Under the pieces are notes generated by a model. It did no database searches. It was not told the origin of the DNA and saw only the letters and a program-made list of their open reading frames with translations. The position numbers and the translations under genes were made by a program. Shown here in pieces: positions 2,276 to 7,838 of a stretch of 64,000 nt of DNA. Origin of the DNA: Escherichia coli (GTDB lineage: Bacteria; Pseudomonadota; Gammaproteobacteria; Enterobacterales; Enterobacteriaceae); assembly GCF_041886205.1 (NCBI RefSeq), contig NZ_CP169029.1, one strand, 5' to 3'. Each line of letters starts with the position of its first letter. Position 1 is the first letter of the stretch.

Positions 2276-3205
2276 TTACGCTGGCATCGCCTCACGCGGG
2301 ATAATCGCGCCGCGATACTGAATAACGGTACTTGCGGTCAGGTGCCCACGTTTCGCCGCGTTTTCCGCACTGCCGCCCGTCAAACGTACCGCCAGATAAC
2401 CGGCGCTGAAAGAGTCGCCAGCTGCGGTGGTATCGATCACTTTTTCTTTCGGCAGTTTCGCCGCCGGAACATCCACTAACCCTTCGCCTGCAATGGACAC
2501 CAGGCAAGAATCCGCCCCGCGTTTCACCACCACTTCTTTCACGCCCGCGTTATGGGTGCGCGCAATGACGTCTTCCACCGGCTGTTGACCCCACAGCGCG
2601 TCTTCATCGTCCAGCGTCAGGAAGGCGATATCCGTGCATTCCAGCATTTGTTGGTACACCTGCTGTGTCTCTTCTTTGCTGGCCCACAGGCGCGGACGAT
2701 AGTTATTGTCGAAAATCACTTTTCCGCCGTTGGCGCGGCATTCGCGCAGCAGGGAAAGCAGCTTTTCGCGGCTGGTCGGGCTTAAGATCGCCAGGCTAAT
2801 CCCGCTCAGGTAGAGATAATCGAAATTCGCCAGCTCTTCGCAAATCGCCGCAGACTGCTCACTCTCCAGCCAGAATTTGGCGGCGGCTTCGTTCCGCCAG
2901 TAGTAGAACGTACGTTCGCCGGTGCTGTCGGTTTCAATGTAGTAAAGGCCCGGAAGACGGTTTTCCATCCGTTGGGTCAGGGAAGTATCAACGTTCTCGC
3001 CGTGCCAGGCGTCCAGCATCTGCTGGCTAAAACTGTCCGTTCCCAGCGCCGTTACGTAATGAACGGTTAATGCCGCAGGATCAACCTGACGGGCGATATA
3101 GACGGAAGTGTTCAGGGTATCGCCGCCGAAACCGCGCTTAACGTCCGCGCCTTTCTCGGAAAGCTCAATCATGCATTCGCCAATCACGGCAATCTTTTTG
3201 GACAT
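2276..3205 (-). CDS. kdgK: 2-dehydro-3-deoxygluconokinase KdgK, 309 aa
   Basis: PfkB sugar kinase; start placed at MSKKIAVIGE (ATG at 3203-3205), not at the longer ORF-track start. Confidence 0.9.
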   Translation of the reverse strand: MSKKIAVIGECMIELSEKGADVKRGFGGDTLNTSVYIARQVDPAALTVHYVTALGTDSFSQQMLDAWHGENVDTSLTQRMENRLPGLYYIETDSTGERTFYYWRNEAAAKFWLESEQSAAICEELANFDYLYLSGISLAILSPTSREKLLSLLRECRANGGKVIFDNNYRPRLWASKEETQQVYQQMLECTDIAFLTLDDEDALWGQQPVEDVIARTHNAGVKEVVVKRGADSCLVSIAGEGLVDVPAAKLPKEKVIDTTAAGDSFSAGYLAVRLTGGSAENAAKRGHLTASTVIQYRGAIIPREAMPA

Positions 3206-3272
3206 AGTCGTGAACCTGATCTGTAAAAAATTAGCGTTAGTTTGCGCTGTGGTGGTTTGCTGGTCAACCATA

Positions 3273-3291
3273 TTAAAACAGTGTTCCATTA
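3273..3291 (-). promoter_or_regulatory. Candidate KdgR operator upstream of kdgK
   Basis: taatggaacactgttttaa on the kdgK strand resembles the KdgR box AATGAAACA-N-TGTTTCATT with two mismatches. Confidence 0.4.
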
Positions 3292-3361
3292 TTTTTTTGA
3301 GCCAGGACGTATTCCTGAAAGATTCCGTTGTGGAGTGAGGAAATTTACCCCGGCCAGGCGG

Positions 3362-3388
3362 TAAAGTTCTGCCCTTACGCGCCGATAA
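3362..3388 (+). promoter_or_regulatory. Sigma-28 (FliA) class 3 flagellar promoter for pdeH
   Basis: TAAAGTTC - 11 nt - GCCGATAA, near-perfect match to the sigma-28 consensus, about 50 bp upstream of the pdeH ATG. Confidence 0.8.
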
Positions 3389-3436
3389 TCTTTGTCGAGT
3401 CCGGGCAGCATCACTTTTAAACACAGGACATCTTTG

Positions 3437-4204
3437 ATGATAAGGCAGGTTATCCAGCGAATAAGCAACCCTGAAGCAAGCATCGAGAGCTTGCAGGAAC
3501 GGCGTTTTTGGTTGCAGTGTGAGCGTGCTTACACCTGGCAGCCGATCTATCAAACATGCGGGCGGTTAATGGCCGTGGAGCTATTAACGGTGGTCACGCA
3601 TCCCTTGAACCCTTCGCAACGCCTGCCGCCGGATCGCTATTTTACTGAAATCACCGTCAGCCATCGGATGGAGGTTGTGAAAGAGCAGATTGATTTGTTG
3701 GCGCAAAAAGCCGACTTCTTTATAGAGCACGGCCTGCTGGCATCGGTCAATATTGATGGCCCTACGCTCATCGCCCTGCGTCAGCAACCAAAAATCCTGC
3801 GCCAGATTGAGCGTCTTCCCTGGCTGCGTTTCGAACTGGTGGAGCATATCCGTCTGCCGAAAGATTCAACCTTTGCCTCGATGTGTGAATTTGGCCCGCT
3901 GTGGCTGGATGATTTTGGTACCGGGATGGCAAATTTCTCTGCACTAAGTGAAGTGCGTTATGACTACATCAAAATCGCGCGAGAACTGTTTGTGATGCTG
4001 CGTCAGTCGCCGGAAGGACGCACACTCTTTTCTCAGCTTTTACATCTAATGAATCGCTATTGTCGCGGGGTGATTGTTGAGGGCGTAGAAACGCCGGAAG
4101 AGTGGCGTGATGTACAGAACTCGCCCGCATTCGCCGCACAAGGCTGGTTTCTTTCACGCCCGGCACCGATAGAAACGCTGAATACGGCGGTTCTGGCGCT
4201 ATAA
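3437..4204 (+). CDS. pdeH: c-di-GMP phosphodiesterase PdeH (YhjH), EAL domain, 255 aa
   Basis: ORF matches YhjH; start at MIRQVIQR. Confidence 0.9.
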   Translation: MIRQVIQRISNPEASIESLQERRFWLQCERAYTWQPIYQTCGRLMAVELLTVVTHPLNPSQRLPPDRYFTEITVSHRMEVVKEQIDLLAQKADFFIEHGLLASVNIDGPTLIALRQQPKILRQIERLPWLRFELVEHIRLPKDSTFASMCEFGPLWLDDFGTGMANFSALSEVRYDYIKIARELFVMLRQSPEGRTLFSQLLHLMNRYCRGVIVEGVETPEEWRDVQNSPAFAAQGWFLSRPAPIETLNTAVLAL

Positions 4205-4273
4205 GCTGCCTCATTTTCCGCCTGGCTGGACTATCTTTAGGACTGGCACAGGAAGAATATGAGGAAGCGAACG

Positions 4274-6334
4274 ATGAGCAAGGCAGGCAAAATAACCGCT
4301 GCGATTTCAGGGGCTTTCTTGTTGTTGATTGTCGTGGCGATCATTTTGATTGCAACTTTTGACTGGAATCGACTCAAACCGACCATCAACCAGAAAGTCT
4401 CTGCGGAGTTGAATCGTCCGTTCGCTATCCGTGGCGATCTGGGCGTGGTGTGGGAGCGGCAAAAACAAGAAACTGGCTGGCGCAGCTGGGTGCCGTGGCC
4501 TCATGTACATGCAGAAGACATCATTCTTGGCAATCCACCGGATATTCCCGAAGTCACGATGGTGCATTTGCCGCGAGTAGAGGCAACGCTGGCACCGCTG
4601 GCGCTGCTGACCAAAACGGTCTGGCTGCCGTGGATCAAGCTCGAAAAGCCCGACGCGCGCCTGATTCGCCTCTCCGAAAAGAACAATAACTGGACGTTTA
4701 ATCTCGCCAACGATGATAACAAAGACGCGAATGCAAAGCCGTCGGCATGGTCGTTTCGGCTGGATAATATTCTGTTCGATCAAGGGCGGATCGCCATTGA
4801 TGACAAAGTAAGCAAAGCGGATCTGGAAATTTTTGTCGATCCGTTAGGCAAGCCGCTGCCGTTCAGCGAAGTTACTGGATCGAAAGGTAAAGCGGATAAA
4901 GAAAAGGTGGGCGATTACGTTTTTGGCCTGAAGGCGCAGGGACGTTATAACGGTGAACCGCTCACGGGTAAGGGGAAAATTGGCGGTATGCTGGCGCTGC
5001 GTGGCGAAGGGACGCCGTTTCCGGTACAGGCTGATTTCCGTTCAGGTAATACCCGTGTTGCTTTTGATGGCGTCGTGAATGACCCAATGAAGATGGGCGG
5101 TGTCGATTTACGGCTTAAATTTTCTGGCGATTCACTGGGTGATCTCTATGAACTGACGGGCGTTCTGCTGCCCGATACCCCGCCGTTTGAAACGGATGGT
5201 CGGCTGGTAGCGAAAATCGACACTGAAAAATCGTCGGTCTTTGATTATCGCGGTTTTAATGGGCGAATTGGCGATAGCGATATCCACGGTTCTCTGGTCT
5301 ACACCACCGGAAAGCCACGACCAAAACTGGAAGGTGATGTCGAGTCGCGGCAATTGCTGCTAGCGGACCTGGGACCGTTGATTGGCGTTGATTCCGGGAA
5401 AGGGGCAGAAAAGTCGAAACGGTCTGAACAGAAGAAGGGCGAAAAAAGCGTTCAGCCTGCGGGCAAAGTGCTGCCTTATGACCGCTTCGAAACCGATAAA
5501 TGGGATGTCATGGATGCCGATGTTCGCTTCAAAGGGCGGCGCATTGAGCATGGCAGTAGCCTGCCGATTAGCGATCTTTCTACTCATATCATCCTCAAAA
5601 ATGCTGACCTGCGCCTGCAACCGCTGAAATTTGGCATGGCGGGCGGCAGCATTGCGGCGAATATTCATCTGGAAGGCGATAAAAAGCCGATGCAGGGGCG
5701 GGCAGATATTCAGGCTCGTCGACTGAAACTGAAAGAACTGATGCCCGATGTGGAACTGATGCAGAAGACGCTGGGGGAAATGAACGGTGACGCGGAACTA
5801 CGCGGTAGCGGTAACTCGGTGGCGGCACTTTTAGGCAACAGTAACGGCAACCTGAAACTGTTGATGAATGACGGGCTGGTGAGCCGCAACCTGATGGAGA
5901 TTGTTGGGCTGAATGTCGGCAACTACATTGTCGGTGCGATATTTGGTGATGATGAGGTGCGGGTGAACTGCGCGGCGGCGAATCTTGATATTGCCAACGG
6001 CGTGGCGCGCCCGCAGATCTTTGCTTTCGATACGGAGAACGCGTTGATTAACGTTACCGGCACGGCAAGTTTTGCTTCGGAACAGCTGGATTTGACTATT
6101 GATCCGGAGAGTAAAGGGATTCGGATTATCACACTGCGTTCGCCGCTGTATGTGCGGGGGACGTTTAAAAATCCGGAGGCTGGGGTGAAAGCCGGACCGC
6201 TGATTGCCCGTGGTGCTGTTGCTGCGGCACTGGCAACGCTGGTAACACCGGCGGCGGCGTTACTGGCGCTGATCTCACCTTCCGAAGGGGAGGCTAATCA
6301 GTGTCGGACGATATTGTCGCAGATGAAGAAGTGA
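4274..6334 (+). CDS. yhjG: AsmA-family inner membrane protein YhjG, 686 aa
   Basis: ORF translation; start at MSKAGKIT with GAGGAAG Shine-Dalgarno 6 nt upstream. Confidence 0.85.
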   Translation: MSKAGKITAAISGAFLLLIVVAIILIATFDWNRLKPTINQKVSAELNRPFAIRGDLGVVWERQKQETGWRSWVPWPHVHAEDIILGNPPDIPEVTMVHLPRVEATLAPLALLTKTVWLPWIKLEKPDARLIRLSEKNNNWTFNLANDDNKDANAKPSAWSFRLDNILFDQGRIAIDDKVSKADLEIFVDPLGKPLPFSEVTGSKGKADKEKVGDYVFGLKAQGRYNGEPLTGKGKIGGMLALRGEGTPFPVQADFRSGNTRVAFDGVVNDPMKMGGVDLRLKFSGDSLGDLYELTGVLLPDTPPFETDGRLVAKIDTEKSSVFDYRGFNGRIGDSDIHGSLVYTTGKPRPKLEGDVESRQLLLADLGPLIGVDSGKGAEKSKRSEQKKGEKSVQPAGKVLPYDRFETDKWDVMDADVRFKGRRIEHGSSLPISDLSTHIILKNADLRLQPLKFGMAGGSIAANIHLEGDKKPMQGRADIQARRLKLKELMPDVELMQKTLGEMNGDAELRGSGNSVAALLGNSNGNLKLLMNDGLVSRNLMEIVGLNVGNYIVGAIFGDDEVRVNCAAANLDIANGVARPQIFAFDTENALINVTGTASFASEQLDLTIDPESKGIRIITLRSPLYVRGTFKNPEAGVKAGPLIARGAVAAALATLVTPAAALLALISPSEGEANQCRTILSQMKK

Positions 6335-6403
6335 TGATAATTGCCGGATGTCTGACATCCGGCAATTAAACAGATTTAGATTGTTGGCAAAGTGTGCTTT
6401 GTT

Positions 6404-6503
6404 CATGCCGGATGCGGCGTGAACGCCTTATCCGGCCTACAAATCCTTGCGAATTCAATATATTGTATGGAAGTTCAGGCCTGATAAGCGTAGCGCATCA
6501 GGC
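6404..6503. repeat. REP (repetitive extragenic palindrome) cluster between yhjG and yhjE, preceded by a 12-bp-stem hairpin at about 6341-6365
   Basis: gccggatgcggcgtgaacgccttatccggcctac and gcctgataagcgtagcgcatcaggc REP-type palindromes. Confidence 0.7.
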
Positions 6504-6515
6504 TTTTCACTCTTA

Positions 6516-7838
6516 TTACAACGACTGATGTCGCGTCTCATGGGTCAGCAGCAGGGCGATTAACGTCAAGCCAGCCATCGCCGCCAGATATAACCCCACC
6601 GCACCTAACCCGTAGTTAGTCTGCAACCAGGCTGCGATATACGGCGCAACGGAAGCCCCGAGAATCGACGCTACGTTGTAAGAGAACGATGCTCCGGTGT
6701 AACGCACTTCTGTCGGAAACAGCTCTGGTAACAGCGCACCCATCGGCCCGAAGGTCAGCCCCATTAGACTTAACCCCAGCAGCAAGAAGGCAAAAACCAG
6801 AATCGGGTTGCCAGAACCGAGCAGCGGGTTAAAGGCGAACAGCGCGAACAGGATGATCAGCGTGGTGATGATTACCATGCTTTTACGGCGACCAAAGGCA
6901 TCAGCCAGTAATCCGGCGACTGGCACCATCACGCCAAAACCAATAACTGCCATCATCAGCATCCACAACACTTCGTTACGCGGCAGGCCAAGCCCAACTG
7001 GCGCGGCGGCGGTACTGAAGGTCATAGAGTAGACCGTCATGATGTAAAACAGCGTATAGGTTGCCAGCATAATGAACGTACCCAGTACGGTTACGCGAAC
7101 ATGTTTGGTCAGCAGCGTACCCAGCGGGATCTTCACCTGTTTTTTCGCTTTAGCGACTTTCTCAAACACCGGCGACTCATGCAGCGACACGCGAACATAC
7201 AGGCCGATAATGACCAGCACCGCCGAGAAGATAAATGGCACACGCCAGCCCCAGCTCATAAACTGCTCATCGGTCAGTAGCCAGGAAAGCAGCAAGAAAG
7301 TGCCGTTGGCAAAGAAGAAGCCAATCGGTGCGCCCAGCTGTGGGAAGGAGCCATACAGTGCACGTTTGCGCGGTGGGGCGTTTTCAGTCGCCAGCAGCGC
7401 CGCGCCGCCCCATTCACCGCCTAAGCCCAGACCCTGACCAAATCGAGCCAGCGCCAGCAGCAGCGGGGCGAAAATACCAATCGTGGCATAGCCCGGCAGC
7501 AGACCAATCACCACGGTCGAAATCCCCATCGTTAGCAACGAGGCGACCAGCGTCGCTTTACGCCCAACGCGATCGCCAAAATGACCAAAAACGGCAGAGC
7601 CAATGGGGCGCGCGACGAAGGCGATGGCGAAGGTGGCGAGCGACTGTAGCGTTGCTGCCGTTGGATCGCCCTGCGGGAAGAAGATATGCGGAAACACAAT
7701 AACGGCCGCAGTGGCGTAAATGTAAAAGTCGAAGAACTCAATGGCCGTGCCAATGAGAGAGGCGACAAGGACTTTATTACGCGAGTTGATCGGCGTGTAT
7801 TCTTGCTCGTGGTCGAGTGTTGTGGCTGTTGCTTGCAT
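6516..7838 (-). CDS. yhjE: MFS transporter YhjE, 440 aa
   Basis: 12-TM MFS-like ORF matching YhjE. Confidence 0.9.
   Translation of the reverse strand: MQATATTLDHEQEYTPINSRNKVLVASLIGTAIEFFDFYIYATAAVIVFPHIFFPQGDPTAATLQSLATFAIAFVARPIGSAVFGHFGDRVGRKATLVASLLTMGISTVVIGLLPGYATIGIFAPLLLALARFGQGLGLGGEWGGAALLATENAPPRKRALYGSFPQLGAPIGFFFANGTFLLLSWLLTDEQFMSWGWRVPFIFSAVLVIIGLYVRVSLHESPVFEKVAKAKKQVKIPLGTLLTKHVRVTVLGTFIMLATYTLFYIMTVYSMTFSTAAAPVGLGLPRNEVLWMLMMAVIGFGVMVPVAGLLADAFGRRKSMVIITTLIILFALFAFNPLLGSGNPILVFAFLLLGLSLMGLTFGPMGALLPELFPTEVRYTGASFSYNVASILGASVAPYIAAWLQTNYGLGAVGLYLAAMAGLTLIALLLTHETRHQSL

Follow-up and report, generated by a model that had tools for sequence, protein, structure and literature searches.

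The FliA-dependent promoter of the c-di-GMP phosphodiesterase gene pdeH in Escherichia coli and its conservation across enterobacteria

The intergenic region between kdgK and pdeH (yhjH) in Escherichia coli carries a motif resembling the sigma-28 (FliA) promoter consensus, which raises the question of whether this element drives pdeH and thereby places a c-di-GMP phosphodiesterase in class 3 of the flagellar regulon. We analysed this locus within a window of 64,000 nucleotides, meaning the whole stretch of E. coli DNA under study, in which dctA, yhjJ and kdgK are followed divergently by pdeH and yhjG (coordinates in Table 1). Over its first 25 kb the window shared 100% identity with E. coli chromosomes, NZ_AP045833.1 among them, and the closest whole-region matches were wild isolates of which this chromosome is an example. 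A 351-nt region around the promoter was matched in 5421 of 5426 complete E. coli genomes, where the flanking genes are annotated as kdgK and pdeH.

The naming of the downstream gene as pdeH in the initial annotation agreed both with the RefSeq annotation of identical E. coli DNA and with Pfam, which placed an EAL domain (PF00563, E = 4.5e-32) over residues 26-242 of 255, most of the protein. Its start codon is the ATG at 3437-3439, which opens a clean 255-amino-acid reading frame, and not position 3438; the claimed distance to the promoter stands despite this correction. The neighbour kdgK is divergent, as had been described: it lies on the minus strand with its ATG at the complement of 3205, its product contains a PfkB kinase domain (Pfam, E = 2.3e-73), and the arrangement was kept in 77 of the 80 orthologous loci collected below. 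The two genes are separated by 231 nt. On the far side of pdeH, the yhjG product contains an AsmA domain (Pfam).

Table 1. Features of the kdgK-pdeH region, in coordinates of the 64-kb window
Feature	Position	Strand	Basis
kdgK CDS (2-dehydro-3-deoxygluconokinase), divergent neighbour	2276..3205	-	translation, annotation, Pfam
candidate KdgR operator TATTAAAACAGTGTTCCATTA	3271..3291		consensus match and conservation; kdgK side, outside the sigma-28 promoter
sigma-28 (FliA) -35 box TAAAGTTC	3362..3369	+	direct reading; consensus TAAAGTTT
spacer tgcccttacgc, 11 nt, sequence unconstrained	3370..3380	+	direct reading
sigma-28 -10 box GCCGATAA, perfect consensus	3381..3388	+	direct reading; under the published FliA ChIP-seq motif
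predicted transcription start (T), 7 nt past the -10 box	3395	+	RegulonDB yhjHp start site, inferred
predicted pdeH 5' UTR, 42 nt	3395..3436	+	from the inferred start site and the ATG
pdeH Shine-Dalgarno AGGA	3425-3428	+	within the predicted 5' UTR
pdeH (yhjH) CDS, 255 aa, stand-alone EAL-domain c-di-GMP phosphodiesterase	3437..4204	+	translation, RefSeq annotation, Pfam

The initial annotation had described a near-perfect FliA consensus at 3362-3388, and this was accurate in coordinates and strand: the element matched 15 of the 16 positions specified by TAAAGTTT-N11-GCCGATAA, with the canonical 11-nt spacing. It is co-oriented with pdeH, and the end of its -10 box lies 48 nt from the ATG, for which "about 50 bp" had been a fair estimate. 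When the whole 64-kb window was searched for this consensus with up to 3 mismatches, the promoter site was recovered with 1 mismatch, and the sole further match, at 25558-25584 on the minus strand, had 3. We also scored the window with a position weight matrix (PWM) trained on the 17 other FliA-bound motifs of Fitzgerald et al. 2014 (PMC4183435), with yhjH held out. The pdeH site scored 23.1 bits and ranked first among the ~128,000 window positions, compared with 14.6 bits for the runner-up and a top score of 19.8 bits over 20 shuffled windows; the training sites themselves spanned 10.9-31.3 bits.

Short promoter consensuses recur in any long sequence, and weaker PWM matches of 11-14.6 bits dot the window within the range of the shuffles, so the motif could in principle be a chance resemblance to the FliA consensus that has no promoter function. 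Against this, the analytic chance expectation for a match with no more than 1 mismatch to the 16 specified bases is 0.0015 over both strands of the window (2 x 64 kb), and the pdeH site scored above every shuffle. The next-best PWM matches, located at 54989-55016 (plus strand), 25557-25584 (minus strand) and 21585-21612 (minus strand), scored 13.6-14.6 bits and are probably chance occurrences, being within the shuffle range of up to 19.8 bits.

All of the experimental evidence for this promoter comes from K-12 rather than from the strain of the window, and the bearing of that evidence depends on how closely the two sequences agree. Across the kdgK-pdeH intergenic region the window differs from K-12 MG1655 by a single SNP at 3306 (G in the window, A in K-12), 56 nt 5' of the -35 box, and the promoter is base-for-base identical. 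The K-12 promoter yhjHp (RegulonDB ECK120009896) is therefore the same element, its 81-nt RegulonDB sequence and its 28-nt ChIP-seq motif both being identical to the window. It precedes the same gene at the same distance from the ATG and faces the same divergent kdgK; the SNP at 3306 and the strain background are the sole differences.

Previous work in K-12 had shown a FliA ChIP-seq peak assigned to yhjH with a FAT score of 67, whose motif, TAAAGTTCTGCCCTTACGCGCCGATAAT, is identical to the window (PMC4183435 Table 2). The same study reported normalised yhjH RNA-seq values of 511 in motile MG1655 and 2 in the fliA deletion, a difference flagged as significant (Table 2), and ChIP-qPCR of FliA-FLAG at yhjH gave 10.1 compared to 0.31 for the untagged control (p = 0.004; PMC4183435 Table S1). 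By qRT-PCR, yhjH expression relative to a wild-type value of 1.0 fell to 0.027 in the fliA deletion and rose to 2.73 when the deletion strain carried pBAD-fliA (PMC4183435 Table S2). A microarray study by Zhao et al. 2007 found a change in yhjH of -9.6-fold in a fliA deletion and of +1.9-fold upon sigma-F induction or overexpression (PMC1935009), and Klauck et al. 2018 used a pdeH promoter-gfp fusion as a reporter of sigma-FliA activity (PMC6119863). In the accessible part of the bioRxiv version of Fitzgerald 2018, the fliA, fliD, fliL, pntA and cvrA intergenic fusions are named as having no detectable FliA-dependent activity or as likely being masked by sigma-70; by elimination only, we infer that yhjH was among the 15 of 20 intergenic fusions that did show FliA-dependent activity.

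FliA binding and FliA dependence have thus been shown by others on the identical K-12 sequence, and the promoter would be expected from that identity to be active in the strain of the window as well. The gene for the sigma factor itself was found in 5379 of the 5426 complete E. coli genomes. In vivo FliA binding together with a ~40- to 250-fold dependence on FliA is not what a chance resemblance would produce. The sigma-28 reading put forward in the initial annotation is borne out by the first rank in the PWM scan and by the published ChIP-seq peak and FliA dependence of the identical K-12 28-mer, and the element at 3362-3388 is almost certainly the FliA-dependent promoter of pdeH, known in K-12 as yhjHp. 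This is no discovery, as the pdeH FliA promoter is already known, catalogued and in use as a laboratory reporter.

To follow the element beyond E. coli, species-representative genomes were scanned with the PdeH protein, which yielded 80 loci at 67-92% amino-acid identity, 79 of them scannable for the promoter. The ~20 genera sampled included Escherichia, Salmonella, Citrobacter, Enterobacter, Lelliottia, Leclercia, Kosakonia and Atlantibacter, and further Siccibacter, Franconibacter, Pseudocitrobacter, Yokenella, Phytobacter, Silvania and Superficieibacter, among others. In all 79 loci the top PWM site within 300 nt upstream lay on the coding strand and had the form TAAAGTT(C/A)-N11-GCCGATAA(C/T), with scores of 16.2-26.7 bits, and in 78 of the 79 its distance to the start codon was 47-57 nt. 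As a control, the opposite strand of these upstream regions gave a median best score of 1.9 bits.

Conservation was concentrated in the two boxes. TAAAGTT and the -10 box were invariant in every one of the 79 loci, and among the 78 distinct sequences, anchored on the -35 box, the -35 and -10 boxes averaged 1.94 and 2.00 bits of information per position, compared to 0.60 for the spacer and 0.69 for the 20 upstream nucleotides. This pattern is the classic footprint of selection acting on the two boxes only and, as read from the alignment, indicates strict purifying selection across ~20 genera. Within E. coli, a 47-mer around the promoter was present exactly in 2514 genomes and with 1-4 differences in another 2907, together making up the 5421 of 5426 complete genomes. 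In four variant E. coli genomes, one of them from the most divergent band, the changes were confined to the spacer (for example A to G at 3376, and C to T) or to the flanks. Boxes that stay invariant over ~20 genera while the spacer drifts are hard to reconcile with a resemblance to FliA sites arising by chance; the probability that we would still give to that reading is next to nil, and the published ChIP-seq, RNA-seq and qRT-PCR results, taken with this conservation, effectively refute it.

Two details of the orthologous promoters were also recorded. The eighth base of the -35 box was C (A in Kosakonia, Phytobacter and some others), the consensus T occurring in 0 of 79 loci, and the T at 3370 was invariant, which in effect extends the conserved -35 element to TAAAGTT(C/A)T. 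In Citrobacter amalonaticus S646 (locus L008, 2239-2503) the sigma-28 boxes were intact at 235 nt from the pdeH ATG, compared with the usual ~48. The pdeH 5' UTR of this strain contains an insertion of ~187 nt, G+C-rich and partly palindromic, between GAGTCCGGGCGGC and AATCACAGGACATC.

A FliA promoter at pdeH does not by itself establish that the gene belongs to class 3 alone, as several flagellar operons are under dual class 2/3 control (PMC4183435). If control were mixed, pdeH expression would also draw substantially on a sigma-70 or FlhDC-activated (class 2) promoter, as happens at fliA, fliD, flgK and flgM. The 2.7% of pdeH expression that persists in the fliA deletion leaves room for trace FliA-independent transcription, and conserved blocks are present within 150 nt upstream. 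These blocks, however, lie on the kdgK side, at a KdgR-like operator, and a sigma-70 consensus scan of 3150-3500 on both strands returned zero promoter-like matches between kdgK and pdeH. In addition, yhjH is missing from the FlhDC binding-site table of the genome-wide study, which mentions the gene three times in its main text, always in the context of FliA (PMC4183435).

The size of the FliA effect weighs in the same direction. Loss of fliA removed 97-99.6% of yhjH mRNA in the published K-12 data (residual 0.4-2.7%), whereas the dual genes flgK, flgM and fliD kept ~20% of their expression in the fliA deletion in the same assay (PMC4183435 Table S2). The literature likewise treats yhjH/pdeH as a class 3 flagellar gene (PMC4238805, PMC6119863) that is driven through the CRP/FlhDC/FliA cascade, for which PMC4238805 refers to Ko and Park 2000, Frye 2006 and Girgis 2007. 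Because the scan found no sigma-70-like promoter, yhjH is missing from the published FlhDC site table and 97-99.6% of the mRNA is lost without FliA, the class 3 assignment made in the initial annotation is well supported, and a substantial contribution from a second promoter is highly improbable.

The conserved blocks on the kdgK side include the site that the initial annotation had marked as a candidate KdgR operator. Scored against the palindromic KdgR consensus AAATGAAACAnTGTTTCATTT quoted from PMC5559549, it matched 15 of 20 positions, the best in the window, yet shuffled sequences reached 14-16, and by its score alone the site does no better than chance matches. Conservation speaks more strongly for it: TTAAAAC-NNN-GTTCCA was kept in 70 of the 79 loci with its three central bases variable, mostly at 86-92 nt upstream of the -35 box, and conserved half-sites around a variable centre support a real binding site for a KdgR dimer at this candidate position. 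The candidate is thus upheld by its conservation and not by its consensus score, which falls within the shuffle range. Between the end of the KdgR-like site and the -35 box lie 70 nt; with this clearance, the intergenic region would hold two control regions that do not overlap. A -10 box and start site for kdgK were not located by the sigma-70 scan of the intergenic region. A minus-strand TTGACC at 3267-3262 adjoins the KdgR-like site, and inspection by eye found no acceptable -10 box at 16-18 nt from it.

Comparison with the mapped K-12 yhjH promoter, which the initial annotation had proposed as a check, led to the same element, but the evidence behind the RegulonDB start site proved to include no code for transcription initiation mapping. 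RegulonDB places the yhjHp start at U00096.2 position 3677252, which corresponds to NC_000913.3 position 3679229 on the minus strand and to window position 3395 (PMC4183435 Table S3). The codes attached to this entry are HIPP and AIPP only, both denoting an inferred site, whereas fliC, tar, tsr and aer carry TIM (PMC4183435 Table S3). The accessible parts of the genome-wide start-site supplements of Kim et al. 2012, SMRT-Cappable-seq and Cappable-seq contained no yhjH entry, an absence that is not evidence in itself. The widely quoted yhjHp start site therefore seems to have been inferred and not mapped.

Taking position 3395 as the start defines the short leader listed in Table 1. The segment ACAGGACA within the pdeH leader was invariant in a 12-sequence alignment. 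A weak GUCC/GGAC pairing of about -7 kcal/mol, in which the pdeH Shine-Dalgarno sequence pairs with the 5' UTR, was judged unremarkable, and an Rfam scan of 3000-4500 gave zero family matches.

Downstream, the question becomes where the sigma-28 transcript ends. A scan of 4100-6600 for intrinsic terminators found none after pdeH, and yhjG follows pdeH in 76 of the 80 loci, which is what would be expected if transcription from the FliA promoter read through into yhjG and formed a pdeH-yhjG operon. The gap between the genes is 69 nt, with the yhjG ATG at 4274, and holds an imperfect long hairpin at 4205-4268 (-31.6 kcal/mol, z = -3.7) that lacks a following U-tract; the Shine-Dalgarno sequence of yhjG, GAGGAA (4262-4267), is covered by its 3' arm. 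In such an operon the hairpin could modulate translation of yhjG or processing of the transcript. A comparably stable hairpin was present in every genus examined, with a median z of -2.8 and with z < -2 in 49 of 69 distinct sequences. The outer stem varied by genus (CCTCAT/ATGAGG, CCTCCTTTT/AAGGAGG and CCCCTTT/AAAGGGG), and judged from the sequences these differences look compensatory.

Several observations weigh against readthrough. Fitzgerald et al. give yhjH as a unit of one gene, and the accessible portion of their supplements makes no mention of yhjG (PMC4183435). In an alignment-free test, the Shine-Dalgarno sequence was paired at 0.70, barely and not significantly above the 0.60 of composition-matched controls, a result that supports a stable hairpin and not a specific sequestration of the Shine-Dalgarno sequence. 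RNAalifold on a MAFFT alignment of the gap returned no consensus structure. The centre of the hairpin suggests another explanation for its conservation: CTAT (4231-4237) was invariant in 52 of 52 aligned orthologous gaps and could belong to a -10-like hexamer of a separate yhjG promoter. This hexamer, TAT(C/A)(T/G)T, reads TATCTT (4232-4237) in E. coli and either TATATT or TATAGT in other loci, and it is not accompanied by a recognisable -35 box. By its sequence, the invariant centre could be the -10 element of yhjG's own promoter, instead of or besides an RNA loop.

On balance we regard a FliA-driven pdeH-yhjG operon as unlikely, and the more specific idea that the hairpin at 4205-4268 is an undescribed cis-regulatory RNA, coupling or gating yhjG to FliA-driven readthrough, as more doubtful still. 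If it were true, such gating would link an outer-membrane lipid-transport-type protein, the AsmA-family YhjG, to the flagellar regulon. Several genera carry a further palindrome of ~50 nt between the pdeH stop codon and the yhjG-proximal hairpin, for example CCCATAATAGCGCGTGGTTAACGCGTTATTACCGG, in loci L007, L011, L029, L031, L033, L037, L042, L048 and L049. E. coli lacks this palindrome, which may act as a terminator or represent a repetitive extragenic element.

For pdeH itself, the mechanism is expected to follow the established logic of class 3 genes. RNA polymerase carrying FliA would recognise TAAAGTTC and GCCGATAA set 11 nt apart and would start most likely at ~3395, the inferred site, giving an mRNA with a leader of ~42 nt that encodes the EAL-domain c-di-GMP phosphodiesterase PdeH. 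A point mutation in the -10 box, such as GCCGATAA to GCCGCTAA, would be expected to abolish promoter activity. FliA is encoded in a class 2 operon, and FlgM keeps it inactive until completion of the hook-basal body, when export of FlgM releases it. Since FliA is gated by FlgM in this way, pdeH is switched on together with the class 3 genes for flagellin, the motor and chemotaxis. PdeH then lowers c-di-GMP, so that YcgR does not brake the motor and expression of CsgD, curli and cellulose is delayed. This chain, from FliA and FlgM through PdeH and c-di-GMP to YcgR and CsgD, is established and has been summarised previously (PMC4238805, PMC6119863).

The promoter is thus the wiring point that ties the main c-di-GMP phosphodiesterase of E. 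coli to flagellar assembly, a connection that keeps c-di-GMP low during swimming and forms the basis of the motile-to-sessile switch. The link between FliA and pdeH has been known since 2000 and was confirmed genome-wide, and another E. coli genome adds nothing new to it. The small value of the present check lies in the strict purifying selection that the two boxes are under across ~20 genera and in the finding that the quoted transcription start was apparently inferred.

Compared to the canonical class 3 promoters of tar, tsr, fliC, motA and flgM, the pdeH promoter shares the TAAAGTTT-N11-GCCGATAA architecture, FliA occupancy by ChIP and an almost complete loss of expression once fliA is deleted, and its PWM score falls mid-range among them. 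It differs in the eighth base of the -35 box, which is C or A and never T in pdeH orthologues, and in its product, a signalling enzyme rather than a structural or chemotaxis component; the tar, tsr and fliC start sites are also experimentally mapped (TIM), unlike that of yhjH. A similar logic is found in Pseudomonas putida, where the flagellar sigma factor drives BifA, a c-di-GMP phosphodiesterase that favours swimming (PMC5300878). The bifA gene is not orthologous to pdeH and, as published, is only partially under FliA control, which makes it an analogy of circuits and not a homology of promoters. A close counterpart is yhjH of Salmonella enterica (STM3611), which is treated as belonging to class 3 and as a strong target of FliA. 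Although the spacer sequence and the 5' UTR of Salmonella yhjH differ from those of E. coli, the promoter of S. enterica subsp. arizonae (locus L011) occupies the orthologous position, keeps both boxes unchanged and likewise lies 48 nt from the ATG.
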